Shown here: one piece after another, positions 9,471-64,000 of the stretch
How positions within the stretch are numbered: the stretch's first letter is position 1
How the letters are laid out: every line of letters starts with the position of its first letter
From: Escherichia coli
GTDB taxonomy: Bacteria > Pseudomonadota > Gammaproteobacteria > Enterobacterales > Enterobacteriaceae
Assembly: GCF_030013595.1 (NCBI RefSeq)
Contig: NZ_CP122768.1
Direction: 5' to 3' (one strand)
DNA: 64,000 bases
Made by a program: the position numbers and the translations under genes
Notes under the pieces: generated by a model
Database searches by the model: none
What the model saw: only the letters and a program-made list of their open reading frames with translations
Told to the model about the DNA's origin: nothing

Positions 9471-9476
9471 CAGGCG

Positions 9477-9510
9477 TAAAAAAACCGGGGAATTATCCCC
9501 GGCTTTTTTA
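9477..9510. terminator. bidirectional rho-independent terminator between pdeA and nupC
   Basis: A-run, ccggggaattatccccgg hairpin, T-run. Confidence 0.6.
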
Positions 9511-9519
9511 TGTATGGTC

Positions 9520-10722
9520 TTACAGCACCAGTGCTGCGATTGACGCAGACAGCACACTCACCAGGGTAGAGCCGTAAACCAGTTTCAGACCGAAGCGAGA
9601 AACCACGTTACCTTGCTCTTCATTCAGGCCTTTAACTGCACCTGCGATAATCCCGATTGAAGAGAAGTTAGCGAAGGAAACCAGGAACACAGAGATGATG
9701 CCTTCAGCACGCGGAGAAAGTGTAGAGGCAATTTTCTGCAGATCCATCATCGCAACGAACTCGTTGGAAACCAGTTTGGTCGCCATGATACTGCCCACTT
9801 GCAGTGCTTCACTGGAAGGAACACCCATCACCCATGCAATCGGATAGAAGATGTAGCCCAGGATGCCCTGGAAGGAGATGCTGTAGCCAAACCAGCCAGT
9901 CACGGTGGCAAACAGTGCGTTCAGCGCGGCGATCAGGGCGATAAAGCCGATCAGCATCGCGGCAACGATAATGGCGACTTTGAAACCTGCCAGAATGTAT
10001 TCACCCAGCATTTCGAAGAAGCTCTGACCTTCGTGTAGGTTGGACATCTGAATGTTTTCTTCACTGGCATCAACACGGTAAGGGTTGATCAGCGACAGCA
10101 CGATAAAGGTGCTGAACATGTTCAGTACCAGTGCCGCAACGACGTATTTCGGTTCCAGCATGGTCATGTATGCACCAACGATGGACATCGACACGGTGGA
10201 CATCGCCGTGGCAGCCATGGTGTACATGCGATTGCGGGAGATTTTGCCGAGGATATCTTTATAGGCAATAAAGTTTTCAGACTGACCCAGAATCAGGGAG
10301 CTGACGGCGTTAAAGGATTCCAGTTTGCCCATGCCGTTGACTTTGGAGAGCAGGAAACCAATTGCGCGGATAATCACCGGCAACACGCGAATGTGCTGGA
10401 GAATACCGATCAGTGCAGAGATAAAGACAATTGGGCACAGCACTTTCAGGAAGAAGAATGCCAGGCCTTGATCATTCATGCTACCAAAGACGAAGTTAGT
10501 CCCTTCGTTGGCAAATCCGAGCAGTTTTTCGAACATTTCGGAGAAGCCTTTCACGAAGCCTAAACCAACGTCGGAGTTCAGGAAGAACCACGCCAGTAAC
10601 ACTTCGATAACAAGCAGTTGAATAACATAACGGATACGAATTTTTTTGCGGTCGCTGCTTACCAGCAGTGCGAGAATCGCAACAACGGCAAGTGCCAGTA
10701 CAAAATGAAGGACGCGGTCCAT
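9520..10722 (-). CDS. nupC: nucleoside:H+ symporter (CNT family)
   Basis: ORF 9520-10761; start refined to ATG 10722 (MDRVLHF..., 400 aa) with GGAG RBS. Confidence 0.95.
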
Positions 10723-10992
10723 ATTTGCTCCAAATATGAGGCAGGTTAAATTTCCGTGCACATTCTATGTAACATGGTTAAGGAAAACGAGATCTGACAC
10801 ACACTATAATGACGTCCTGTGACAAGCTTCAAAAATAGTGAGCTGTCATACATTTCTGCTATGTTGTGTATGGAAGCTGAAAGTTATGTAAATGTGCTAA
10901 CATTAAACATAACCATAACATTCAAGTCATCAATCTTTTCGTAGTCATAATCCTGGTCTATCAGAGAAATCACCACAATCCATTTAAATGAA

Positions 10993-11011
10993 TTTGATAA
11001 TCATTCTCGTT
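10993..11011. promoter_or_regulatory. putative Fur box in mntH promoter
   Basis: tttgataatcattctcgtt resembles the GATAATGATAATCATTATC Fur consensus. Confidence 0.45.
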
Positions 11012-11023
11012 TGGCATAGCATG

Positions 11024-11045
11024 AAACATAGCAAAGGCTATGTTT
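11024..11045. promoter_or_regulatory. putative MntR operator
   Basis: Near-perfect palindrome AAACATAGC-AAAG-GCTATGTTT 12 bp upstream of mntH ATG. Confidence 0.6.
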
Positions 11046-11048
11046 TAG

Positions 11049-12420
<1,372 letters not shown>

Positions 12421-34531: not shown

Positions 34532-34546
34532 GGTAATGACTCCAAC

Positions 34547-35050
34547 TTACTGATAGTGTTTTATGTTCAGATAATGCCCGATGACCTTGTCATGCAGCTC
34601 CACCGATTTTGAGAACGACAGTGACTTCCGTCCCAGCCTTGCCAGATGTTGTCTCAGATTCAGGTTATGCCGCTCAATGCGCTGAGTATAACGCTTGCTG
34701 ATAACGTGCAGCTTTCCCTTCAGGCGTGATTCATACAGCGGCCAGCCATCCGTCATCCATACCACGACCTCAAAGGCCGACAGCAGGCTCAGAAGACGCT
34801 CCAGTGTGGCCAGAGTGCGTTCACCGAAGACGTGCGCCACAACCGTCCTCCGCATCCTGTCATACGCGTAAAACAGCCAGCGCTGACGTGATTTAGCACC
34901 GACGTAGCCCCACTGTTCGTCCATTTCAGCGCAGACAATCACATCACTGCCCGGTTGTATGCGCGAGGTTACCGACTGCGGCCTGAGTTTTTTAAGTGGC
35001 GGAAAATCGTGTTGAGGCCAACGCCAATAATGCGTGCACTGGCGCGACAT
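34547..35050 (-). CDS. insB: IS1 transposase InsB frame (expressed as InsAB' by -1 frameshift)
   Basis: 167-aa ORF matching IS1 InsB. Confidence 0.9.
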
Positions 35051-35244
35051 CCGACGCCATTCATGGCCATATCAATGATTTTCTGGTGCGTACCGGGCTG
35101 AGAGGCGGCGTAAGTGAACTGTAGTTGCCATGTTTTACGGCAGTGAGAGCAGAGATAGCGCTGATGTCCGGCGGTGCTTTTGCCGTTACGCACCACCCCG
35201 TCAGTAGCTGAACAGGAGGGACAGCTGATAGAAACAGAAGCCAC
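34969..35244 (-). CDS. insA: IS1 InsA transposition inhibitor/DNA-binding protein
   Basis: 91-aa ORF with CxxC...CxxC zinc finger; overlaps insB start. Confidence 0.9.
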
Positions 35245-35299
35245 TGGAGCACCTCAAAAACACCATCATACACTAAATCAGTAAGTTGGCAGCATCACC

Positions 35300-51158: not shown

Positions 51159-51230
51159 CATCTACTTGAGGCGGCAGGGGATTGATTGGAATGGTGTTTT
51201 TTAGATGTGAAAAATATTTTACCCGCTATT

Positions 51231-51431
51231 TTACCCATTGGCGCGGCTTAAGAGCTTATTTTTGAATTCACAATGGTCACGATATAACCATCTTGCTCGC
51301 CCGTGGATAACTTTGGCTTTTGGCAGGTCGCCGGACTTAATCCGGTCATAGATGAAGGTTTTACCGAATCCAGTATCGGCCATGATGAATTTCAAATCAA
51401 CCAGTGAATCAGGCTGTAGTTCGTGTTGCAT
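51231..51431 (-). CDS. torI: AlpA/Xis-family excisionase (recombination directionality factor), TorI-like
   Basis: 66-aa ORF at the prophage edge next to the att core; size and position match KplE1 TorI; identity from recall. Confidence 0.6.
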   Translation of the reverse strand: MQHELQPDSLVDLKFIMADTGFGKTFIYDRIKSGDLPKAKVIHGRARWLYRDHCEFKNKLLSRANG

Positions 51432-51562
51432 GAGTGCTATCTCCGAATAGGGAATCGAACCTGCAAATCAGGCAATAAAAAACCGCCATCAGGCGGCTTG
51501 GTGTTCTTTCAGTTCTTCAATTCGAATATTGGTTACATTGTTTTAATATATGAATAAATAAA

Positions 51563-51775
51563 TTAGCTTTTTTCGTTGCCTTCGCGTTCTTTATTAATTT
51601 TAACAAACTCGTTTTTACCACGCTCTCCAAATGCGTCTTTAGAGTCGTTGTATCCGCAATCGCAGCACACATAATCACCAGACCATCCACGCATTGTTTT
51701 TTCTTTTGCAATATTTCCAGAACCGCATTTTGGACAAGACATATCACTACCTCCAAAGCATGAGTGAGATGACAA
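51563..51775 (-). CDS. small Cys-rich zinc-finger protein (lambda Ea8.5 position)
   Basis: 70-aa ORF with CPKCGSG...CCDCGYN zinc-ribbon-like motifs. Confidence 0.4.
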   Translation of the reverse strand: MSSHSCFGGSDMSCPKCGSGNIAKEKTMRGWSGDYVCCDCGYNDSKDAFGERGKNEFVKINKEREGNEKS

Positions 51776-51838
51776 CGTAACATTGATTGGAGATTAACAA
51801 TAGATTGCTGATGTAAAAGATATGTATAAGCTTCGCTT

Positions 51839-52393
51839 TCAAAGTGGAGGCTCTGGTAGCGGCATCCAGTGTGACGGCTCACATACCACCTCAACACCGT
51901 TCATGTAAAAGAATTGAAATAACCCTTTACCTTTGTGAAACCCTACCATCTGCTCTTTTGTGTCTGAACAATAAACCAAAACATCTTCTTCGTTTGGCAT
52001 CCACTCACTACAGCTTATCCAACCATCTGGAATTACCGGAGAGTTGCCCGACATCTCATTCAACTTGTAAGTCTGGCTTACAGGTTTGGCTTCCAGTTCT
52101 GCAATGCGCTTACCTCCATCCGCGATTACTCCCTCGTAATATTCACGCTGCTCGTTGAGTTTTGATTTTGCTTCCTCAAGCTCAACTCTCAGCTTCCCTA
52201 CCGTTAGCGCAATATCCTCGTTCTCCTGGTCACGGCGTTTGATGTATTGCTGGTTTCTTTCCCGTTCATCCAGCAGTTCCAGCACAATCGATGGTGTTAC
52301 CAATTCATGGAAAAGGTCTGCGTCAAATCCCCAGTCGTCATGCATTGCCTGCTCTGCCGCTTCACGCAGTGCCTGAGAGTTAATTTCGCTCAC
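51839..52393 (-). CDS. Ead/Ea22-like early protein (DUF551-type)
   Basis: 184-aa ORF at the Ea22 position of the lambda early-left operon. Confidence 0.55.
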   Translation of the reverse strand: MSEINSQALREAAEQAMHDDWGFDADLFHELVTPSIVLELLDERERNQQYIKRRDQENEDIALTVGKLRVELEEAKSKLNEQREYYEGVIADGGKRIAELEAKPVSQTYKLNEMSGNSPVIPDGWISCSEWMPNEEDVLVYCSDTKEQMVGFHKGKGLFQFFYMNGVEVVCEPSHWMPLPEPPL

Positions 52394-52611
52394 TTCGAAC
52401 CTCTCTGTTTACTGATAAGTTCCAGATCCTCCTGGCAACTTGCACAAGTCCGACAACCCTGAACGGCCAAGCGTCTTCGTTCATCTATCGGATCGCCACA
52501 CTCACAACAATGAGTGGCAGATATAGCCTGGTGGTTCAGGCGGCGCATTTTTATTGCTGTGTTGCGCTGTAATTCTTCAATTTCTGATGCTGAATCAATG
52601 ATGTCTGCCAT
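52390..52611 (-). CDS. TraR/DksA-family C4 zinc-finger protein
   Basis: 73-aa ORF with CxxC-17-CxxC motif (CCECGDPIDERRRLAVQGCRTCASC). Confidence 0.55.
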   Translation of the reverse strand: MADIIDSASEIEELQRNTAIKMRRLNHQAISATHCCECGDPIDERRRLAVQGCRTCASCQEDLELISKQRGSK

Positions 52612-52709
52612 CTTTCATTAATCCCTGAATTGTTGGTTAATACGCTTGAGGGTGAATGCGAATAATAAAAAAGGAGCCTGTAGCTCCATGATGATTTTGT
52701 TTTTCATGC

Positions 52710-52991
52710 TCACCGTTCCTTAAAGACGCCGTTTAACATGCCGATCGCCAGGCTTAAATGAGTCGGTGTGAATCCCATCAGCGTTACCGTTTCGCGGTGC
52801 TTCTTCAGTACGCTACGGCAAATGTCATCGACGTTTTTATCCGGAAACTGCTGTCTGGCTTTTTTGATTTCATAATTAGCCTGACGGGCAATACTGCGAA
52901 GGGCGTTTTCTTGCTGAGGTGTCATTGAACAAGTCCCATGTCGGCAAGCATAAGCACACAGAATATGAAGCCCGCTGCCAGAAAAATGCAT
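52710..52991 (-). CDS. hypothetical phage early protein
   Basis: 93-aa ORF, co-oriented in the early-left operon; start uncertain. Confidence 0.35.
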   Translation of the reverse strand: MHFSGSGLHILCAYACRHGTCSMTPQQENALRSIARQANYEIKKARQQFPDKNVDDICRSVLKKHRETVTLMGFTPTHLSLAIGMLNGVFKER

Positions 52992-53001
52992 TCAGTGGTT
53001 G

Positions 53002-53193
53002 TCATACCTGGTCTCTCTCATCTGCTTCTGCTTTCGCCACCATCATTTCCAGCTTTTGTGAAAGGGATGTGGCTAACGTATGAAATTCTTCGTCTGTTTC
53101 TACTGGTATTGGCACAAACCTGACTCCAATTTGAGCGAGGCTATGTGCCATCTCGATACTCGTTCTTAACTCAACGGGAGATGCTTTGTGCAT
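53002..53193 (-). CDS. hypothetical phage early protein (lambda orf63 position)
   Basis: 63-aa ORF. Confidence 0.35.
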   Translation of the reverse strand: MHKASPVELRTSIEMAHSLAQIGVRFVPIPVETDEEFHTLATSLSQKLEMMVAKAEADERDQV

Positions 53194-53354
53194 ACAGCCC
53201 CCCGTTTATTATTTATCTCCTCAGCCAGCCGCTGGGCTTTCAGTGGATTTTGGATAACAGAAAGGCCGGGAAATACCCAGCCTCGCTTTGTAACGGAGTA
53301 GACGAAAGTGATCGCGCCTACCCGGATATTATCGTGAGGATGCGTCATCGCCAT
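53166..53354 (-). CDS. hypothetical phage early protein (lambda orf60a position)
   Basis: 62-aa ORF overlapping exo stop. Confidence 0.3.
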
Positions 53355-54025
53355 TGCTCCCCAAATACAAAACCAATTTCAGCCAGTGCCTCGTCCATTT
53401 TTTCGATGAACTCCGGCACCATCTCGTCAAAACTCGCCATGTACTTTTCATCCCGCTCAACCACGACATAATGCAGTCCTTCACGCTTCATACGCGGGTC
53501 ATAGTTGGCAAAGTACCAGGCATCTTTTCGCGTCACCCACATGCTGTACTGCACCTGGGCCATGTAAGCCGACTTTATGGCCTCGAAACCACCGAGCCGG
53601 AACTTCATGAAATCCCGGGAGGTAAACGGGCATTTCAGCTCAAGGCCATTGCCGTCACTGCATAAACCATCGGGAGAGCAGGCGGTGCGCATACTTTCGT
53701 CGCGATAGATGATCGGGGATTCAGTAACATTCACGCCGGAAGTGAATTCAAACAGGGTTCTGGCGTCGTTCTCGTACTGTTTTCCCCAGGCCAGCGCCTT
53801 AGCATTAACTTCCGGAGCCACACCGGTGCAAACCTCAGCCAGCAGGGTGTGGAAGTAGGACATTTTCATGTCAGGCCACTTCTTTCCTGAGCGGGGCTTT
53901 GCTATCACGTTGTGAACTTCTGAAGCGGTGATGACGCCGAGCCGTAATTTGTGCCACGCATCATCCCCCTGTTCGACAGCTCTCACGTCGATCCCGGTAC
54001 GCTGCAGGATAATGTCCGGTGTCAT
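53345..54025 (-). CDS. exo: lambda-type 5'-3' exonuclease (Red-alpha)
   Basis: 226-aa ORF, YqaJ-type recombinase exonuclease; followed by bet and gam. Confidence 0.9.
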
Positions 54026-54807
54026 GCAGCCACCTTCTGTTCAGAGGCTTTCTGTTTCAGGAATCCAAGAGCTTTCACTGCTTCGGCCTGTGTCAGTTCT
54101 GACGATGCGCGAATGTCGCGGCGAAATATCTGGGAACAGAGCGGCAATAAGTCGTCATCCCATGTTTTATCCAGGGCGATCAGCAGAGTGTTAATCTCCT
54201 GCATGGTTTCATCGTTAACCGGAGTGATGTCGCGTTCCGGCTGGCGTTCTGCAGTGTGTGCAGTATTTTCGACAATGCGCTCGGCTTCATCCTTGTCATA
54301 GATACCAGCAAATCCGAAGGCCAGACGGGCACACTGAATCATGGCTTTATGCCGTAACATCCGTTTGGGATGCGACTGCCACGCCCCCGTGATTTCTCTG
54401 CCTTCGCGAGTTTTGAATGGTTCGCGGCGGCATTCATCCATCCATTCGGTAACGCAGATCGGATGATTACGGTCCTTGCGGTAAATCCGGCATGTACAGG
54501 ATTCATTGTCCTGCTCAAAGTCCATGCCATCAAACTGCTGGTTTTCATTGATGATGCGGGACCAGCCATCAACGCCCACCACCGGAACGATGCCGTTCTG
54601 CTTATCAGGGAAGGCGTAAATTTCTTTCGTCCACGGATTAAGGCCGTACTGGTTGGCGACGATCAACAATGCGATGAACTGCGCATCGCTGGCATCACCT
54701 TTAAATGCCGTCTGGCGAAGAGTGGTGATCAGTTCCTGTGGGTCGACAGAATCCATGCCGACACGTTCAGCCAGCTTCCCTGCCAGCGTTGCGAGTGCTG
54801 TACTCAT
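54022..54807 (-). CDS. bet: single-strand annealing protein Bet (Red-beta)
   Basis: 261-aa ORF; overlaps exo start as in lambda. Confidence 0.9.
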
Positions 54808-54812
54808 CCGTT

Positions 54813-55109
54813 TTATACCTCTGAATCAATATCAACCTGGTGGTGAGCAATGGTTTCAACCATGTACCGGATGTGTTCTGCCATGCGCTCCTGAAACTCA
54901 ACATCGTCATCAAACGCACGGGTAATGGCTTTTTTGCTGGCCCCGTGGCGTTGCAAATGATCGATGCATAGCGATTCAAACAGGTGCTGGGGCAGGCCTT
55001 TTTCCATGTCGTCTGCCAGTTCTGCCTCTTTCTCTTCACGAGCGATCTGCTGGTAGTGACGCGCCCAGCTCTGAGCCTCAAGACGATCCTGAATGTAATA
55101 AGCGTTCAT
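54813..55109 (-). CDS. gam: host-nuclease (RecBCD) inhibitor Gam (short form)
   Basis: 98-aa [24 protein letters not shown]... matching lambda GamS as recalled. Confidence 0.9.
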
Positions 55110-55184
55110 GGCTGAACTCCTGAAAATGGCTGTGAAAATAGCGCCCGCGAAATGCCAGGCTGATTAGGAAAACAGGAAAGGGGG

Positions 55185-55328
55185 TTAGTGAATGCTTTTG
55201 CTTGATCTCAGTTTCAGCATTAATATCCATTTTTTATAAGCGTCGACGGCTTCACGAAACATCTTTTCATCGCCAATAAAAGTGGCGATAGTGAATTTAG
55301 TCTGGATAGCCATAAGTGTTTGATCCAT
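55185..55328 (-). CDS. kil: host-killing protein Kil
   Basis: 47-aa [12 protein letters not shown]... within ORF 55185-55454; overlaps cIII by 32 nt as in lambda. Confidence 0.8.
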
Positions 55329-55461
55329 TTTTTGGGACTCCTGGCTGATTAAGTATGTCGATAAGGCGTTTCCATCCGTCACGTAATTTACGGGTGATTC
55401 GTTCAAGTAAAGATTCGGAAGGGCAGCCAGCAACAGGCCACCCTGCAATGGCATATTGCAT
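55297..55461 (-). CDS. cIII: cIII (FtsH protease inhibitor)
   Basis: Manual translation gives [54 protein letters not shown] (54 aa); below ORF-track cutoff. Confidence 0.85.
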   Translation of the reverse strand: MQYAIAGWPVAGCPSESLLERITRKLRDGWKRLIDILNQPGVPKNGSNTYGYPD

Positions 55462-55533
55462 GGTGTGCTCCTTATTTATACATAACGAAAAACGCCTCGA
55501 GTGAAGCGTTATTGGTATGCGGTAAAGCCGCGC

Positions 55534-55845
55534 TTAGGCGGCTGATGTTTCTTCTTTCAGGCTTTCGAGATATTTACGTGGGTCGTCGTAACATTGGCAT
55601 TCGCTGTACCAATCCACCCAGCGATCAGTAAGCCCCACCTCTGATAAATCTTCATCGGTAAGGCTCTCATCCCACATCTCAAGGCCGTTAGCATTGCAGT
55701 AATCAGGCTTGATGTTGTTGTCATACTGAAAGGCGTCATAATCAGCCAGTGCGTCCATCAGGCGAACACCCTCTTCAACACTTGCCACTTCTACAATGAA
55801 CGGCTTCATAGGTACTTGCGGGATATGCCAGACACGTAATTTCAT
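55534..55845 (-). CDS. hypothetical acidic protein (lambda ea10 position)
   Basis: 103-aa ORF, strongly acidic, Trp/Cys-containing. Confidence 0.5.
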   Translation of the reverse strand: MKLRVWHIPQVPMKPFIVEVASVEEGVRLMDALADYDAFQYDNNIKPDYCNANGLEMWDESLTDEDLSEVGLTDRWVDWYSECQCYDDPRKYLESLKEETSAA

Positions 55846-55989
55846 ATTTCCTCCGTCAAAAAAATGCCCTCACACTGGAGGGCAAAGAAGATTTCCAATA
55901 ATCAGAACAAGTCGGCTCCTGTTTAGTTACGAGCGACATTGCTCCGTGTATTCACTCGTTGGAATGAATACACAGTGCTTATTCGCAGC

Positions 55990-56316
55990 CTACATAATCA
56001 TTCCGGTTATTATTACCATTTCAATATCGCTATCTTTCATAATGATTGGAGTTGAGTTATCAACTTTACTTTTACTCCATTTTCCTGCATCAGTTTTTAC
56101 CGCTCCACAATAAGAAAGCCAATCATCATCACAATGTTCTGGATCACTAATTCTGACAAGAACACGTGATAGTGCTTTTTCGATACTTTCATCACAATTA
56201 GCATTTGTGTAATTGCCGTGAGACAATTTCAAATCGTTAACTTCATCTTCATTGGCATCAAAAATATAGATTTCAGTCGACTCTGGAACATTTTCATAAA
56301 CCATTAAAACTTTCAT
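55990..56316 (-). CDS. hypothetical protein, AT-rich moron-like gene
   Basis: ORF 55990-56397; likely start ATG 56316 (MKVLMVYENVPE...) after GGGG RBS; low GC relative to flanks. Confidence 0.45.
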   Translation of the reverse strand: MKVLMVYENVPESTEIYIFDANEDEVNDLKLSHGNYTNANCDESIEKALSRVLVRISDPEHCDDDWLSYCGAVKTDAGKWSKSKVDNSTPIIMKDSDIEMVIITGMIM

Positions 56317-56356
56317 TTTTACCCCATATTGTTTATGCCAAAAATAAAGGCCACCA

Positions 56357-56557
56357 TTAGGCAGCCTTGTTGTTCTGTTTACCAAGTTCTCTGGCAATCA
56401 TTGCCGTCGTTCGTATTGCCCATTTATCGACATATTTCCCATCTTCCATTACAGGAAACATTTCTTCAGGCTTAACCATGCATTCCGATTGCAGCTTGCA
56501 TCCATTGCATCGTTTGAATTGTCCACACCATTGATTTGTATCAATAGTCGTAGTCAT
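56357..56557 (-). CDS. ral: Ral-like small Cys-rich protein (restriction alleviation), tentative
   Basis: 66-aa ORF with CGQFKRCNGC motif at the ral position and size; identity from recall. Confidence 0.5.
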   Translation of the reverse strand: MTTTIDTNQWCGQFKRCNGCKLQSECMVKPEEMFPVMEDGKYVDKWAIRTTAMIARELGKQNNKAA

Positions 56558-56627
56558 ACGGATAGTCCTGGTATTGTTCCATCACATCCTGAGGATGCTC
56601 TTCGAACTCTTCAAATTCTTCTTCCAT
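56541..56627 (-). CDS. possible 28-aa acidic leader peptide (MEEEFEEFEEHPQDVMEQYQDYPYDYDY)
   Basis: Short ORF with strong GAGGTGA RBS 6 nt upstream of ATG; its stop overlaps the ral-like start. Confidence 0.25.
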   Translation of the reverse strand: MEEEFEEFEEHPQDVMEQYQDYPYDYDY

Positions 56628-56685
56628 ATCTCACCTCAAATAAGTGGTTTGCTGCCTAATTTCATTTTCTGGCGACCAACACAAG

Positions 56686-56958
56686 TCATCTTGCTGTCAG
56701 CTGTTTGGATTTCCTGTAGCCTGCCGCGTAAATGGCTACATTTGGAAGACAAGTTGAGCCTTCATATTTTCTGGTCAACGTTGTCAGTGTTATTACTTCT
56801 GCTCTCATTACTGGTTTGCGTTTGCATTGTAAGACCACTCGTGAAGGGGTTGGCCTGTGTAGCTTGTCAGAGCTGATCGCCTCCTGACTTTGCAGGTTTG
56901 CACGACGAGCTCTACGGCGAGAAGCTGCGGTGCCTTTAAATTCTGTTTTTCTGGACAT
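56686..56958 (-). CDS. N-like transcription antiterminator (P22 gene 24 type)
   Basis: ORF 56686-57030; start refined to ATG 56958 after GGGAGGA RBS; arginine-rich motif AASRRRARRANLQ; C-terminus ...IYAAGYRKSKQLTAR. Confidence 0.75.
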   Translation of the reverse strand: MSRKTEFKGTAASRRRARRANLQSQEAISSDKLHRPTPSRVVLQCKRKPVMRAEVITLTTLTRKYEGSTCLPNVAIYAAGYRKSKQLTAR

Positions 56959-57056
56959 AGATTCCTCCCGAATAAACTTTGGCGATGCAATCTCGAAGCT
57001 CCTCCTGAGACGGTTGCTTCGGCATTGCATCCCACAGCTTATATGGTTGGGTGATC

Positions 57057-57070
57057 TGGCTTTTCAGCCA
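57057..57070 (-). promoter_or_regulatory. putative nutL boxB hairpin
   Basis: Transcript-sense UGGCUGAAAAGCCA stem-loop between the putative pL and N start. Confidence 0.35.
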
Positions 57071-57148
57071 CGTAGTCGAGTGTTCGACGTTGTTTAAAGA
57101 GCCTGCCAGTCTGCTCCGTTTGGCTTACAGCGTCCTGCTGACGGTTAA

Positions 57149-57177
57149 ATAGTACGATATGTACTTTATTGGGTCAA
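57149..57177 (-). promoter_or_regulatory. putative pL promoter
   Basis: TTGACC -35 and TACTAT -10 with 17-nt spacer on minus strand upstream of N. Confidence 0.35.
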
Positions 57178-57397
57178 TACAATTTGTTCTAAAATGGGGT
57201 GATTTTTTATAACGCTTTGTATTTAATAGTGTTGTTTTTTAGCGTGGGTGTATCGCCTCGGCGATGTAAGGAGAGATCAGAATTGCGTGGTTTAGTGAGT
57301 TGTATCTATTTATTTTTCAATAAATACATTTGGTTATGTGTCTTTAGGTGGGGGCGTGAGGCAAAGAAAACCCGGCTCGGTGGCCGGGTTGATGGGA

Positions 57398-58255
57398 TTA
57401 TCGTTTATTTCTTTGATGTTTCTTTGCTGACTCAGCTTGAGTGTTTCCATACCTGCGTTTACCGCTATTGTTTTTTCCTCTAGGCTTGCCTTTTTTTCGA
57501 TCTTCCCACCAGTCAGGTGCCGGGTCTGGCTCAACATGTAAAGCATCGGCAAGTCCTGATATCAAGCTGTATGACTGAACTCCATCAATGTGCTCTGACA
57601 GTGATGGGGTAACATTCTGTCTTAGTGGATCAAGAATAAAATCAATACCTTTAATTCTGGCGTGTTTGGCGGCAGGCACAAAGTCTGAGTCCCCAGCAAC
57701 AAGGACAATTACATCAACAAGTTTTTCATAAGCTAAAGTCGTGATATCCATCCCTAGCTTGATATCAACTTGTTTTTGTTTGATGTCATAGTAAAAATCA
57801 TCATTTGTCAGTTCATCCCATTTTTTCGTTCCTTTCATCAGAGCATCAAGGGAGAATGTAGTTAGTTGCCATCGCTTATTATCAACAAGATTCCCTAATC
57901 TTAAGGCTGTTTTTCGAGTTTTTCTTAACTCTTCATGCAGCTCCGTTCTCAGAATATATGATTTTTCGAGTTTGAAATTCTTGCGACCAGGCGTCTTATT
58001 GCCAGGCTCAGGAAGTGGAAGGCGTGTTTGAATGTCGAGTGGTGGACAGTCATAGAAGTAAATTCTATAAAGCTCAAGCGGTTCCCTACGTTCTTGTGAT
58101 TGACGTTTTCCATTAAGATGGGAAAGAACCATTGACCATATTACTTTCATTATGCATTGCGCAGTCAGTTCATGCTCGGCGAAGTGTTTACGATGCGTAG
58201 CATGAACACGCTGCATGAAAAAACCCGCATCAATTAAAATTGCTGCTTTCTTCAT
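57398..58255 (-). CDS. NYN/LabA-like (PIN-fold) nuclease-domain protein with Lys/Arg-rich C-terminal tail; candidate prophage exclusion/defence protein in the rex position
   Basis: 285-aa ORF: N-terminal AILIDAGFF and central VLVAGDSDFVPAAKHARIKGIDF NYN-type motifs; basic tail; between cI and pL/N; AT-rich. Confidence 0.75.
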   Translation of the reverse strand: MKKAAILIDAGFFMQRVHATHRKHFAEHELTAQCIMKVIWSMVLSHLNGKRQSQERREPLELYRIYFYDCPPLDIQTRLPLPEPGNKTPGRKNFKLEKSYILRTELHEELRKTRKTALRLGNLVDNKRWQLTTFSLDALMKGTKKWDELTNDDFYYDIKQKQVDIKLGMDITTLAYEKLVDVIVLVAGDSDFVPAAKHARIKGIDFILDPLRQNVTPSLSEHIDGVQSYSLISGLADALHVEPDPAPDWWEDRKKGKPRGKNNSGKRRYGNTQAESAKKHQRNKR

Positions 58256-58382
58256 AAGAGTCCCAAAAAAATAGCCCAGAGCCGTTATGCAGATATTAAC
58301 AATTGTCTGCGAACGGGGCTGGGCTTGGTTTAATTAATCTATGCCAAGTTGACTGTGCCGTCAACATAAAACTTACTTCCTA

Positions 58383-59036
58383 TCACCCAAACGTCTCTTC
58401 AGGCCACTGACTAGCGATAACTTTCCCCACAACGGAACAACTCTCATTGCATGGGATCATTGGGTATTGTGGGTTTAGTGGCTGTAGAAACACCTGACCG
58501 CTATCCCTGATCAGTTTCTTGAAGGTAAACTCATCACCACCAAGTCTGGCTATACAGAAATCGCCTGGCTCAACAGCCTGCTCAGGGTCAACCAGAATTA
58601 ACATCCCGTCAGGAAAGCTGGGCTTGGATCCTGTTGGTGCGGTCATGGAATTACCTTCAACCTCAAGCCAGAATGCAGAGCCACTGGCTTTTTTGGTTGT
58701 GCTTACCAATCTCTCCGCATCGCCTTTGGTAAAGGTTCTGAGTTCTGGAGAGAACATCCCAGCCTGAACATGAGAAAATACAGGGTACTCATATTGTTTT
58801 TTAACTGGGGCCGATGAGTATTCGCCAACAGGTGAAAATGTCCCGTCGTGGTTGAATGATATGTTATCAATACCAAGGTATTTAAACACCACACCAATAT
58901 CACTAAGAGATGGATGACGAGATCCGCGCAACCAGTGTCCAATCCCACCCTGCGTCATACCTAGCTCTTCGGCTAACTTCTCTTGAGTTATGCCGAGCTC
59001 TTTCATTCTGGATCTAGCCAGTTCATACCATTTCAT
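58383..59036 (-). CDS. cI: cI-type prophage repressor (HTH plus S24 LexA-like peptidase domain)
   Basis: ORF 58383-59084; probable start ATG 59036 ([10 protein letters not shown]...) 7 nt after AAGGA; C-terminal GNSMTAP...KKL...PLNPQYPMI autocleavage domain. Confidence 0.85.
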
Positions 59037-59152
59037 TTTCATGTCCTTATTATTACGCTCTGTACTGGAACCATCAATGCACAATGTGTATTTTTGCTTG
59101 TATTTGGAAAGTACATATTGTATTTTTTATTCGAGGTTACTATGGAGGGCAT

Positions 59153-59368
59153 ATGAGCAACCTACGAAAATATCGAGAGTCACTGAATATCTCTCAAACA
59201 ACACTTGCTAAGGCAGTTGGATGCACACAGGGAGCTATCGGACATTGGGAATCTGGTCGTCGCTTCCCAGACCTTAAAACATGCCGTGCTCTTGTTGCGT
59301 GCCTAAATAAGTTAGGCGCAAAAGTAAGTCTTGATGACGTGTTCCCGCCGGAACACAAAGCCGCTTAA
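59153..59368 (+). CDS. cro: Cro-like HTH repressor
   Basis: ORF 59084-59368; start refined to ATG 59153 after GGAGGG; HTH QTTLAKAVGCTQGAIGHWE; divergent from cI. Confidence 0.7.
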   Translation: MSNLRKYRESLNISQTTLAKAVGCTQGAIGHWESGRRFPDLKTCRALVACLNKLGAKVSLDDVFPPEHKAA

Positions 59369-59509
59369 TAAGCGGAGCCGCTCTTTGTAACAACGGACAT
59401 TCGTCCTACGTCGCTGAAAAGCGAGTCCCAAGATATCTGACCAACTAAGGCCATATGCGTTTCCACGCATACCTTTCAACTAACTATTCACTATTGGAAA
59501 TCTTAAGAA

Positions 59510-59806
59510 ATGGAACGAACAAGTTACAGCAAACTATCACAGCGTGACGTTGATCGCGCAGAAACAGATTTACTCATCAACCTATCAACGCTTACCCAGC
59601 GCGGTCTGGCAAAGATGATTGGCTGTCATGAATCGAAGATAAGCAGAACGGACTGGAGATTTATTGCTTCGGTCTTGTGTGCTTTCGGAATGGCATCAGA
59701 CATCAGTCCGATTAGCAGGGCTTTTAAGTATGCGCTTGATGAAATCACAAAGAAAAAATCCCCGGCCGCCACCGAGGATTTTAAGCAAATTGATATGCAA
59801 TTCTGA
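59510..59806 (+). CDS. cII: CII-like transcriptional activator
   Basis: 98-aa ORF; C-terminus ...KKKSPAATEDFKQIDMQF resembles lambda CII ...KKRPAATERSEQIQMEF. Confidence 0.8.
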   Translation: MERTSYSKLSQRDVDRAETDLLINLSTLTQRGLAKMIGCHESKISRTDWRFIASVLCAFGMASDISPISRAFKYALDEITKKKSPAATEDFKQIDMQF

Positions 59807-59838
59807 GGGAATTACTGGATCAATCTACAGGGGTCATT

Positions 59839-60738
59839 ATGACAAATACAGCAAAAATACTCAACTTCTGCAGAGGTAACTTTGCCGAACAGGAGCGTAA
59901 TGTGGCAGATCTCGATGATGGTTACGCCAGACTATCAAATATGCTGCTTGAGGCTTATTCAGGCGCAGATCTGACCAAGCGACAGTTTAAAGTGCTGCTT
60001 GCCATTCTGCGTAAAACCTATGGGTGGAATAAACCAATGGACAGAATCACCGATTCTCAACTTAGCGAGATTACAAAGTTACCTGTCAAACGGTGCAATG
60101 AAGCCAAGTTAGAGCTCGTCAGAATGAATATTATCAAGCAGCAAGGCGGCATGTTTGGACCAAATAAAAACATCTCAGAATGGTGTATCCCTCAAAACGA
60201 GGGAAAATCCCCTAAAACGAGGGATAAAACATCCCTCAAATTGGGGGATTGCTATCCCTCAAAACAGGGGAACACAAAAGACACTAATACAAAAGAAAAA
60301 AGAAAAGATTATTCGTCAGAGAATTCTGGCGAATCCTCTGACCAGCCAGAAAACGATCTTTCTGTGGTTAAACCGGATGCTGCAATTCAGAGCGGCAGCA
60401 AGTGGGGAACAGCAGAAGACCTGACCGCCGCAGAGTGGATGTTTGACATGGTGAAGACCATCGCGCCATCAGCCAGAAAACCGAATTTTGCTGGGTGGGC
60501 TAACGATATCCGCCTGATGCGTGAACGTGACGGACGTAACCACCGCGATATGTGTGTGCTTTTCCGCTGGGCCTGCCAGGACAACTTCTGGTCCGGTAAC
60601 GTGCTGAGTCCGGCCAAACTCCGCGACAAGTGGACCCAGCTCGAAATCAACCGTAACAAGCAACAGGCAGGCGTGACAGCCAGCAAACCAAAACTCGACC
60701 TGACAAACACTGACTGGATTTACGGGGTGGATTTATGA
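59839..60738 (+). CDS. O: replication initiator O
   Basis: 299-aa ORF essentially identical to lambda O as recalled; contains ori iterons. Confidence 0.95.
   Translation: MTNTAKILNFCRGNFAEQERNVADLDDGYARLSNMLLEAYSGADLTKRQFKVLLAILRKTYGWNKPMDRITDSQLSEITKLPVKRCNEAKLELVRMNIIKQQGGMFGPNKNISEWCIPQNEGKSPKTRDKTSLKLGDCYPSKQGNTKDTNTKEKRKDYSSENSGESSDQPENDLSVVKPDAAIQSGSKWGTAEDLTAAEWMFDMVKTIAPSARKPNFAGWANDIRLMRERDGRNHRDMCVLFRWACQDNFWSGNVLSPAKLRDKWTQLEINRNKQQAGVTASKPKLDLTNTDWIYGVDL
60187..60270 (+). repeat. ori-lambda iterons (four approx. 18-bp repeats ATCCCTCAAAACGAGGGA-like) followed by AT-rich segment
   Basis: Directly visible repeats tccctcaaaacgaggga / tcccctaaaacgaggga / tccctcaaattggggga / tccctcaaaacagggg inside O. 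Confidence 0.7.
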
Positions 60739-61436
60739 AAAACATCGCCGCACAGATGGTTAACTTTGACCGTGAGCAGATGCGTCGGATCGCCAACAAC
60801 ATGCCGGAACAGTACGACGAAAAGCCGCAGGTACAACAGGTAGCGCAGATCATCAATGGTGTGTTCAGCCAGTTACTGGCAACTTTCCCGGCGAGCCAGG
60901 CTAACCGGGACCAGAACGAACTGAACGAAATCCGCCGCCAGTGGGTGCTGGCTTTCCGGGAAAACGGGATCACCACGATGGAACAGGTTAACGCAGGAAT
61001 GCGCGTAGCCCGTCGGCAGAATCGACCATTTCTGCCATCACCCGGGCAGTTTGTTGCATGGTGCCGGGAAGAAGCATCCGTTACCGCCGGACTGCCAAAC
61101 GTCAGCGAGCTGGTTGATATGGTTTACGAGTATTGCCGGAAGCGAGGCCTGTATCCGGATGCGGAGTCTTATCCGTGGAAATCAAACGCGCACTACTGGC
61201 TGGTTACCAACCTGTATCAGAACATGCGGGCCAATGCGCTTACTGATGCGGAATTACGCCGTAAGGCCGCAGATGAGCTTGTCCATATGACTGCGAGAAT
61301 TAACCGTGGTGAGGCGATCCCTGAACCAGTAAAACAACTTCCTGTCATGGGCGGTAGACCTCTAAATCGTGCACAGGCTCTGGCGAAGATCGCAGAAATC
61401 AAAGCTAAGTTCGGACTGAAAGGAGCAAGTGTATGA
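60735..61436 (+). CDS. P: replication protein P (DnaB helicase loader)
   Basis: 233-aa ORF; ATGA overlap with O stop. Confidence 0.95.
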   Translation: MKNIAAQMVNFDREQMRRIANNMPEQYDEKPQVQQVAQIINGVFSQLLATFPASQANRDQNELNEIRRQWVLAFRENGITTMEQVNAGMRVARRQNRPFLPSPGQFVAWCREEASVTAGLPNVSELVDMVYEYCRKRGLYPDAESYPWKSNAHYWLVTNLYQNMRANALTDAELRRKAADELVHMTARINRGEAIPEPVKQLPVMGGRPLNRAQALAKIAEIKAKFGLKGASV

Positions 61437-61723
61437 CGGGCAAAGAGGCAATTATTCATTACCTGGGGACGCATAATAGCTTCTGTGCGCCGGACGTTGC
61501 CGCGCTAACAGGCGCAACAGTAACCAGCATAAATCAGGCCGCGGCTAAAATGGCACGGGCAGGTCTTCTGGTTATCGAAGGTAAGGTCTGGCGAACGGTG
61601 TATTACCGGTTTGCTACCAGGGAAGAACGGGAAGGAAAGATGAGCACGAACCTGATTTTTAAGGAGTGTCGCCAGAGTGCCGCGATGAAACGGGTATTGG
61701 CGGTATATGGAGTTAAAAGATGA
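61433..61723 (+). CDS. ren: Ren (Rex exclusion protection protein)
   Basis: 96-aa ORF immediately after P with ATGA overlap. Confidence 0.85.
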   Translation: MTGKEAIIHYLGTHNSFCAPDVAALTGATVTSINQAAAKMARAGLLVIEGKVWRTVYYRFATREEREGKMSTNLIFKECRQSAAMKRVLAVYGVKR

Positions 61724-61749
61724 CCATCTACATTACTGAGCTAATAACA

Positions 61750-61780
61750 GGCCTGCTGGTAATCGCAGGCCTTTTTATTT
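61750..61780 (+). terminator. tR2-like rho-independent terminator
   Basis: caggcctgctggtaatcgcaggcc hairpin followed by TTTTTATTT between ren and ninB. Confidence 0.5.
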
Positions 61781-61796
61781 GGGGGAGAGGGAAGTC

Positions 61797-62237
61797 ATGA
61801 AAAAACTAACCTTTGAAATTCGATCTCCAGCACATCAGCAAAACGCTATTCACGCAGTACAGCAAATCCTTCCAGACCCAACCAAACCAATCGTAGTAAC
61901 CATTCAGGAGCGCAACCGCAGCTTAGACCAAAATCGGAAGCTTTGGGCTTGCCTTGGTGACGTTTCGCGTCAGGTTGAATGGCATGGTCGCTGGCTGGAT
62001 GCAGAAAGCTGGAAGTGTGTGTTTACCGCAGCATTAAAGCAGCAGGATGTTGTTCCTAACCTTGCCGGGAATGGCTTTGTGGTAATAGGCCAGTCAACCA
62101 GCAGGATGCGTGTAAACGAATTTGCGGAGCTATTAGAGCTTATACAGGCATTCGGTACAGAGCGTGGCGTTAAGTGGTCAGACGAAGCGAGACTGGCTCT
62201 GGAGTGGAAAGCGAGATGGGGAGATCGGGCTGCATGA
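61797..62237 (+). CDS. ninB: NinB recombination protein (Orf)
   Basis: ORF 61779-62237; start refined to ATG 61797 after GGGGGAGAGGG. Confidence 0.85.
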   Translation: MKKLTFEIRSPAHQQNAIHAVQQILPDPTKPIVVTIQERNRSLDQNRKLWACLGDVSRQVEWHGRWLDAESWKCVFTAALKQQDVVPNLAGNGFVVIGQSTSRMRVNEFAELLELIQAFGTERGVKWSDEARLALEWKARWGDRAA

Positions 62238-62761
62238 CTATCAAATCAAATACGCCAGCACACGACAAGGACTGCTGGCAAACGCCGCTTTGGCTTTTTG
62301 ATGCACTGGATATTGAGTTTGGATTCTGGCTGGATTCGGCAGCGAGCGACAAAAATGCTCTGTGTGCTCACTGGCTAACTGAGGCCGACGACGCGCTCAA
62401 TTCTGAGTGGGTAAGCCACGGTGCAATCTGGAATAACCCACCGTACAGCAATATCAGGCCGTGGGTGGAAAAAGCCGCTGAGCAGTGCATACAACAGCGA
62501 CAGACGGTAGTGATGCTTGTGCCAGAGGATATGTCAGTCGGATGGTTCAGCAAGGCTCTGGAGAGTGTCGACGAAGTTCGCATTATCACTGATGGACGGA
62601 TTAATTTTATCGAACCATCGACGGGGCTGGAGAAGAAGGGAAACAGCAAAGGCTCCATGCTGCTGATTTGGCGACCGTTCATCAGTCCTCGACGGATGTT
62701 TACTACCGTATCCAAAGCGGCATTGATAGCGATCGGGCAGGGCGTCAGGAGGGCGGCATGA
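62234..62761 (+). CDS. phage N6-adenine DNA methyltransferase (orphan)
   Basis: ORF 62174-62761; start ATG 62234 overlapping ninB stop; NPPY catalytic motif (IWNNPPYS). Confidence 0.8.
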
Positions 62762-62934
62762 GGCGACAGCGACGAAGTTTCACCGACATCATCTGCGAAA
62801 ACTGCAAATACCTTCCAACGAAACGCTCCAGAAATAAACGCAAGCCAATCCCAAAAGAATCTGACGTAAAAACCTTCAACTACACGGCTCACCTGTGGGA
62901 TATCCGGTGGCTAAGACATCGTGCGAGGAAATGA
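62758..62934 (+). CDS. ninE: NinE
   Basis: [27 protein letters not shown]... within ORF 62668-62934; ATGA overlap with methyltransferase stop. Confidence 0.75.
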
Positions 62935-62936
62935 CA

Positions 62937-63338
62937 ATGCTTTTAATTCAACCTGGATTTGGCCTTAGCATCAAAAAAGGACACATGTTTGGCGAGAAAG
63001 AGTCACAACGAAAAATGGTGTCTATCCGGTTGCCATTTATCAGTATTTATTGGCTAAACAGGGAGGCAACAAATTATTGGTATACATGCGCCAGAGCAGC
63101 ATTTAACGACCCTGACTGGTTTGTGAAAAACCACCATGCGGTTCGTCAGGCAAAGAGAAAGGCCAATACGACATACATGAAGGCGTATCGAAAAGCATGG
63201 AAAGAACACCGCGATCGATACCAGCAAGACATGGAAAAGCTTGAATCAGAAAACATGGAATTAAGACGAAAGCTTGGTGAAGCAAAACGAGACATTGATG
63301 CTTACAAGCGACTTTTTAATGGTGAAAGCCATGCTTAG
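62937..63338 (+). CDS. hypothetical nin-region protein with C-terminal coiled coil
   Basis: ORF 62895-63338; likely start ATG 62937 after GAGG; C-terminal QQDMEKLESENMELRRKLGEAKRDIDAYKRL heptad-like. Confidence 0.4.
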   Translation: MLLIQPGFGLSIKKGHMFGEKESQRKMVSIRLPFISIYWLNREATNYWYTCARAAFNDPDWFVKNHHAVRQAKRKANTTYMKAYRKAWKEHRDRYQQDMEKLESENMELRRKLGEAKRDIDAYKRLFNGESHA

Positions 63339-63507
63339 CCCATCCCAAACCCTTCAATACCAGAAAGAAAGCGTCGAGCGAGCTTTAACGTGCGCTAACT
63401 GCGGTCAGAAGCTGCATGTGCTTGAAGTTCATGTGTGTGAGCACTGCTGCGCAGAACTGATGAGCGATCCGAATAGCTCAATGTACGAGGAAGAAGACGA
63501 TGAATGA
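63331..63507 (+). CDS. ninF: NinF (Cys-rich)
   Basis: MLSPSQTLQYQKESVERALTCANCGQKLHVLEVHVCEHCCAELM... within ORF 63274-63507. Confidence 0.75.
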   Translation: MLSPSQTLQYQKESVERALTCANCGQKLHVLEVHVCEHCCAELMSDPNSSMYEEEDDE

Positions 63508-64000
63508 GTTAATAAATGGCAATGCCATCAAAATGACAAGCATTGAAATCGCTGAGTTGGTGGGTAAGCGTCATGACAATGTGAAACGTACCATCGAAAC
63601 GCTGGCTAAAAATGGTGTTATCCGGCTTCCTCAAATTGAGGTTTCCGAAAGAATCAATAACTTAGGGTTCAATGTTCAGTACGAGCATTACGTCTTCGAA
63701 GGCGAACAAGGTAAGCGAGATAGTATTGTTGTTGTTGCCCAGTTGTCGCCAGAGTTCACCGCTCGCCTTGTTGACCGCTGGCGAGAGCTTGAAGAAACTG
63801 CGGCTAATATCCCCAAAACGCTACCAGAAGCGTTGCGCCTTGCTGCTGATCTTGCTGAGCAGAAAATGCAACTGGAAAACCAGCTCGCAATTGCCGCACC
63901 TAAAGTTGAGTTTGCCGATCGTGTTGGCGAGGCCAGCGGAATTTTGATTGGAAACTTTGCAAAGGTTGTTGGAATTGGTCAAAACAAACTGTTTGCGTGG
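63500..64000 (+). CDS. Rha/Roi-like phage regulatory protein, 5' portion (runs off window end)
   Basis: ATG 63500 overlapping ninF stop; N-terminus MNELINGNAIKMTSIEIAELVGKRHDNVKRTIETL typical of the Phage_pRha family; open to 64000. Confidence 0.6.
   Translation, partial: MNELINGNAIKMTSIEIAELVGKRHDNVKRTIETLAKNGVIRLPQIEVSERINNLGFNVQYEHYVFEGEQGKRDSIVVVAQLSPEFTARLVDRWRELEETAANIPKTLPEALRLAADLAEQKMQLENQLAIAAPKVEFADRVGEASGILIGNFAKVVGIGQNKLFAW

Follow-up and report, generated by a model that had tools for sequence, protein, structure and literature searches.

The mntH promoter of Escherichia coli K-12 reportedly carries a Fur box together with an MntR inverted repeat, and the corresponding promoter of Salmonella enterica is said to contain OxyR, Fur and MntR motifs. 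MntR sites have reportedly also been placed at mntP and mntS of E. coli. A review describes the E. coli mntH promoter as having separate MntR, Fur and OxyR sites, with two repressors that act independently (PMC8632737). Fur was found to repress an mntH-lacZ fusion (Beauchene et al. [quoted passage not shown] 2023). Dual repression of mntH by iron and manganese with this architecture is already known and published.

We analysed a 64-kb stretch of E. coli DNA (hereafter the window, meaning the whole stretch of 64,000 nucleotides), for which an earlier note had pointed out adjacent Fur-like and MntR-like operators upstream of mntH. In the main reading, to which we assign a probability of about 0.93, window positions 10947–11057 are the canonical E. 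coli mntH promoter/operator, with a predicted sigma-70 promoter flanked by independent Fur and MntR repressor sites (Table 1). The dual regulation by iron and manganese claimed in that note was supported, as both elements were found where it had placed them and are backed by independent evidence. As textbook dual repression, with a sequence that is the same as in K-12, the result is of little weight as a discovery. It does allow the locus to be annotated confidently as an mntH promoter, intact and controlled by OxyR, Fur and MntR.

Gene context and identity to K-12

The reading frame that starts with the ATG at 11058–11060 encodes 412 residues and was identified as MntH using NCBIfam model NF001923, for which it scored 622.6 bits where the cutoff is 430. 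The intergenic region extends between this gene and the divergent nupC, whose ATG is at 10722 on the minus strand, and the gene neighbours are those of K-12, with nupC divergent and ypeC and yfeO downstream of mntH. Base-for-base identity to E. coli K-12 MG1655 was found over window positions 10843–11080, and the only two intergenic single-nucleotide differences, at 10825 and 10842, fall outside the operators. The regulatory region, which had been described as intact, is so indeed, because its sequence is identical to that of K-12. The 601-bp stretch that includes the mntH control region was found in 5424 of 5426 complete E. coli genomes.

On the far side of nupC, K-12 carries an IS186 copy (IS186C) between nupC and yfeA, whereas the window has no IS186 there; the nupC/yfeA gap (9471–9519) contains only a bidirectional terminator-like hairpin, AAAAAACCGGGGAATTATCCCCGGCTTTTTT. 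Elsewhere in the window, a 768-bp copy of IS1 with a target-site duplication of 9 bp (AATCATGTT) was located at 34532–35299, near yfdV and yfdE, and is absent from O157:H7 PV15-279. The region from ~51200 to 64000 is not collinear with that strain, and a lambda cIII thermoregulator element on the minus strand at 55416–55474 (Rfam RF01804, 88.5 bits) suggests a lambdoid prophage in it. The csc sucrose genes, at ~45.6–50.7 kb, lie just before this candidate prophage region.

Table 1. Features of the mntH control region in window coordinates, with conservation over the 81 sequences scored.
Feature	Position	Strand	Basis	Conservation
Upstream background	10908–10946			41.7%
OxyR-like activator site, ATAA-N7-CTAT-N7-ATCA-N7-CCAT	10947–10983	+	12/16 vs ATAG-N7-CTAT-N7-ATAG-N7-CTAT	73%
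ypeD (b4819 in K-12), annotated 29-codon ORF	10988–11077	+	K-12 annotation	
Fur box 19-mer, GAATTTGATAATCATTCTC (core GATAATCATTCTC)	10990–11008	.	15/19 vs consensus, ChIP-exo peak, conservation	
Fur-like 13-mer, GATAATCATTCTC	10996–11008	.	read from sequence	97.7%
Predicted −35 hexamer TTGATA, regulated mntH promoter	10994–10999	+	promoter search; inside Fur box	100%
Predicted −10 hexamer TAGCAT, 17-nt spacer	11017–11022	+	promoter search	92.6%
Predicted MntR operator, perfect 9-4-9 palindrome, AAACATAGC-AAAG-GCTATGTTT	11024–11045	.	geometry, conservation, motif recurrence	97.6%
Shine-Dalgarno GAGG of mntH	11048–11051	+	read from sequence; 6 nt before ATG	
mntH, Nramp-family Mn2+/H+ importer	11058–12296	+	ORF, NCBIfam NF001923, annotation	

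Fur box

The Fur-like 13-mer forms the core of the 19-mer and matches positions 7–19 of the Fur consensus GATAATGATAATCATTATC at 12 of 13 positions. A consensus search allowing up to three mismatches misses the site at 10990–11008, which has four. At the level of 15/19, two matches were observed in the window against 0.29 expected. The other one, at 159–177 on the minus strand, may be due to chance, as may a 14/19 match at 6–24, near the window start. The earlier note had put a Fur-box-like site about 20 bp upstream of the palindrome described below; the site itself stands, but the spacing holds only loosely, as the gap measures 15 nt (28 nt from start to start).

Occupancy of the site by Fur in vivo is documented by published data for MG1655, to which the window is identical in this region. 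Gao et al. (2023) reported a Fur ChIP-exo peak for mntH at 2510767–2510798 in an older K-12 numbering. With the mntH ATG at coordinate 2510728 of the same numbering, the peak was placed at window positions 10988–11019, where it brackets the 19-mer, so the position of the Fur site agrees with the occupancy data. A model for the binding of Fur, built on information theory, had predicted a two-site, 25-bp cluster 56 nt upstream of the mntH start (Chen et al. 2007), which corresponds to window position 11002.

A second Fur ChIP-exo peak of the same study, P76, to which no transcription unit was assigned, falls at 10713–10742, over the nupC start codon. Under it lies an 8-3-8 palindrome, CATATTTG-CTC-CAAATATG, at 10720–10738, and no obvious Fur box was seen there.

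MntR palindrome

Downstream of the Fur box, arms AAACATAGC (11024–11032) and GCTATGTTT (11037–11045) enclose the spacer AAAG (11033–11036). This element had been described as a near-perfect palindrome 12 bp before the mntH ATG. The distance is exactly 12 nt (11046–11057) and the palindrome is present, but it is perfect rather than near-perfect, because the 9-nt arms are fully complementary. With up to three mismatches allowed, the pattern occurred once in the 64 kb, compared with 0.04 occurrences expected.

The motif recurs at other MntR targets. Upstream of mntP in K-12, the 9-4-9 motif was found twice, with three mismatches in each case (GAATTTAGCCAAAGCTATGTTT and AGACATAGCTTAGGCTATATTA; 0.00 expected), and the K-12 mntS promoter contains the 16-nt core pattern ATAGC-N4-GCTAT twice (TATAGCACAGGCTATA and TATAGCTATTGCTAAA); the strict 22-nt palindrome pattern gave no match at K-12 mntS. 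The motif is therefore common to the known MntR regulon. The mntP and mntS sites share the 9-4-9 geometry and the ATAGC-N4-GCTAT core with mntH, whereas their outer bases are degenerate and their spacers are CAAA, TTAG, ACAG and TATT instead of AAAG. The sites of mntP are found ~380–420 nt upstream of its ATG, and MntR is reported to activate this gene, not to repress it.

From the motif recurrence, the conservation described below and secondary citations, we infer that MntR would contact the palindrome at 11024–11045. A literature search for MntR ChIP-exo data found none, and a full-text search for the mntH operator sequence returned no match. CATAGCA occurs as a direct repeat with copies 12 nt apart (11015–11033), of which one covers the −10 hexamer and the other belongs to the palindrome's left arm.

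Promoter, start sites and OxyR-like site

The hexamer pair TTGATA/TAGCAT was the sole plus-strand sigma-70-like site detected in 10600–11200. Its predicted −35 element falls within the Fur 19-mer, and the palindrome begins 1 nt after the predicted −10 element. Together with the 17-nt spacer, the two hexamers imply a transcription start near 11029 (about 11028–11030), and the palindrome would accordingly cover the start, from about −5 to +17. The sequence GAGGCA, in the Shine-Dalgarno region of mntH, is kept in most of the species aligned.

The start-site dataset of Kim et al. (2012) for K-12 contains no start at the predicted TTGATA/TAGCAT promoter, probably because the regulated promoter was repressed in the cultures used. 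The starts assigned to mntH in that dataset are weak and correspond to window positions 10911 (5 reads) and 10872 (11 reads), both upstream of ypeD. An antisense start at 11070 on the minus strand (13 reads), in codon 5 of mntH, reads back through the operators, and the nupC start is at 10755 on the minus strand, 33 nt ahead of the nupC ATG (Kim et al. 2012).

Upstream of the promoter, the OxyR-like site at 10947–10983 has four mismatches to the pattern and was missed by a search that allowed three. No more than two positions of the 64-kb window reach its score. In 67 of the 81 sequences aligned, the motif begins at an offset of 47 nt ahead of the −35 hexamer, and the block CTATCAGAGAAATCA is at least 90% conserved. 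This site, which adjoins the −35 hexamer, probably gives peroxide activation of mntH. The OxyR-like site, the promoter hexamers and the overlapping ypeD were all absent from the earlier note.

Cross-species conservation

For comparison across species, the 150 nt upstream of each ATG were aligned for 80 orthologous mntH loci from 80 Enterobacteriaceae species, and 81 sequences were scored. More than 20 genera were sampled, including Escherichia, Salmonella, Citrobacter, Enterobacter, Klebsiella, Raoultella, Buttiauxella, Kosakonia and Atlantibacter. Conservation values for the individual elements are given in Table 1. Variants of the −10 hexamer in other species comprised TAACAT, TAATAT, TAGCTT, TAGTTT and TAGCCT, with T1, A2 and T6 always kept. 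The 18-nt core of the palindrome, AAACATAGCAAAGGCTAT, was identical in 80 of the 81 sequences, the spacer AAAG included. Measured start to start, the −35 hexamer and the palindrome are 30 nt apart in 27 sequences and 29 nt apart in 51. Within the genus, 11 Escherichia sequences showed single-nucleotide differences in the −35/−10 spacer and upstream, whereas the Fur 13-mer, the −10 hexamer and the palindrome were free of them. In Trabulsiella odontotermitis TbOT1.10, a 16-nt tandem duplication, ATATTTCAGAGGCAGA, which begins in the right arm of the palindrome and lies just upstream of the mntH ATG, doubles the Shine-Dalgarno region and brings the gap between palindrome and ATG to 28 nt.

These data bear on whether the Fur and MntR motifs are mere chance resemblances in AT-rich intergenic DNA, a reading that could appeal to the second 15/19 match to the Fur consensus in the window and to which we give next to no weight. 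The expected counts are low for both patterns (0.04 for the palindrome and 0.29 for the Fur match), both motifs are near-invariant over more than 20 genera while the flanking DNA is conserved at ~42%, and the Fur-like site coincides with the ChIP-exo peak. Conservation and this coincidence refute chance resemblance.

The ypeD reading frame

The small ORF ypeD covers both operators and overlaps the first 20 nt of mntH, so the conserved stretch might mainly be YpeD coding sequence, with the operators incidental to it. K-12 annotates ypeD exactly over the conserved stretch, and 69 of the 81 sequences retain its ATG at 10988; this ATG also sits within the region of the Fur ChIP-exo peak. Moreover, Stringer et al. 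presented conservation alignments of YpeD against putative homologues from Salmonella and Citrobacter, and gave new gene names to small ORFs for which western blotting had shown the tagged protein. The weak upstream starts at 10872 and 10911 could supply mRNA for translation of ypeD.

The behaviour of the frame across sequences nevertheless makes a coding origin of the conservation extremely unlikely. The ypeD frame through the palindrome differs between the groups with 30-nt and 29-nt spacing, and the peptide varies in length from 8 to more than 33 residues. A stop takes the place of codon 9 (11012–11014) in Escherichia sp. E1V33 and E. whittamii, as well as in E. coli alleles, namely TAA in Rb-23 and T309.Ta3 and TGA in CRECJHTL34. 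When 123-bp sequences with the stop alleles were compared with complete genomes, about 1004 and 42 records differed from them by at most one mismatch, as estimated from identity bands. Within the ypeD frame, third codon positions are the most conserved (0.90, compared with 0.835 and 0.89 for the others), in contrast to codons 2–10 of mntH, which show the usual third-position dip (0.73). Furthermore, an NCBIfam search returned no family matching YpeD. Coding constraint on ypeD was rejected as the cause of conservation on account of the frame shifts between genera, the codon-9 stops and the third-position conservation, and the apparent conservation of ypeD therefore comes from the operators. Operator constraint explains the cross-genus conservation of ypeD better than peptide selection does, which calls for caution with small-ORF catalogues ranked by conservation. 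In the three loci examined with codon-9 stop alleles, PGAP calls an 18-residue ORF from an internal ATG at 11021.

RNA-level alternatives

The palindrome might instead, or in addition, work at the RNA level, as a hairpin of the mntH leader with a role in stability, translation control or attenuation. A leader made from the upstream starts folds the palindrome as a hairpin, with a minimum free energy of −21.1 kcal/mol for the whole 91 nt (z = −2.46), and an mRNA from the predicted promoter would start with a 5-bp terminal hairpin. In addition, the AAAG loop and the inner stem, invariant in 80 of 81 sequences, exceed what MntR would need as suggested by the degenerate mntP and mntS sites.

We nonetheless consider this explanation very unlikely. 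The outer right arm varies among GTTT, ATTT, ATCT and ATTA across species, and no compensating left-arm change accompanies G11042A (60 of 81 sequences), T11044C (13) or T11045A (4), which fits independent protein half-sites and not a selected RNA stem. The predicted short 5′ untranslated region does not fold better than shuffled controls (z = −0.15), and the leader contains no terminator-like U tract. The promoter DNA of mntP and mntS carries the same motif, and loss of manganese repression is reported for an mntR mutant. Rfam covariance models, including yybP-ykoY, gave no match to the leader at gathering thresholds, and the only matches in 10723–11200 were chance eukaryotic ones (E > 2). A riboswitch or known leader RNA was rejected as there was no Rfam match, and a terminator or attenuator as there was no terminator-like site. 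The preferred reading of the palindrome remains that of a protein operator.

A small excess of constraint is left unexplained, in that 80 of 81 mntH sequences share exactly the spacer AAAG. Since the spacers at mntP and mntS are different ones, the DNA may be constrained by more than recognition of the half-sites by MntR. The operator DNA might thus carry a second function besides Fur and MntR binding, such as a conserved 5′-terminal hairpin or a leader ORF that tunes mRNA stability or translation. There is room for it because the AAAG-containing core is invariant and the upstream starts yield leaders with ypeD and the full hairpin, but we regard it as unlikely. If true, bound Fur and MntR would also be roadblocks to read-through transcripts.

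Proposed mechanism

With the operator reading as a basis, regulation may be envisaged as follows. Fur loaded with Fe2+ would bind the 19-bp box, which contains the −35 hexamer, and by occluding the −35 region would block binding of RNA polymerase. A dimer of MntR loaded with Mn2+ would sit on the palindrome, over the −10/+1 junction, and block open-complex formation or promoter escape. The elements taken to carry repression are ATAGC/GCTAT for manganese and GATAATCATT for iron. Fur and MntR would act as independent metal-sensing repressors, so that either metal alone could repress the manganese importer. OxyR, in turn, would activate from its putative site adjoining the −35 hexamer.

Comparison with known systems

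The closest relatives outside E. coli were the mntH promoters of S. enterica subsp. arizonae and subsp. diarizonae, which have the identical 22-bp palindrome and show the OxyR-like site, the −35 hexamer with the Fur box, and the −10 hexamer in the same order and with the same spacing. They differ in two respects. The core of the Salmonella Fur box is a perfect GATAATCATTATC, whereas that of E. coli is GATAATCATTCTC, and the −10 region of Salmonella is overlaid by a complete third half-site, AAACATAGC, of which E. coli has only CATAGC. More distantly, MntR of Bacillus subtilis, one of the DtxR-family manganese sensors, likewise binds as a metal-loaded dimer to an inverted repeat at the promoters of manganese uptake genes. 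Its operator sequence is different, and the link to peroxide runs through PerR and not OxyR (PMC8632737). Compared with the mntH promoter of K-12, finally, the window has the same gene, the same position of the Fur ChIP-exo peak and operators without any difference.
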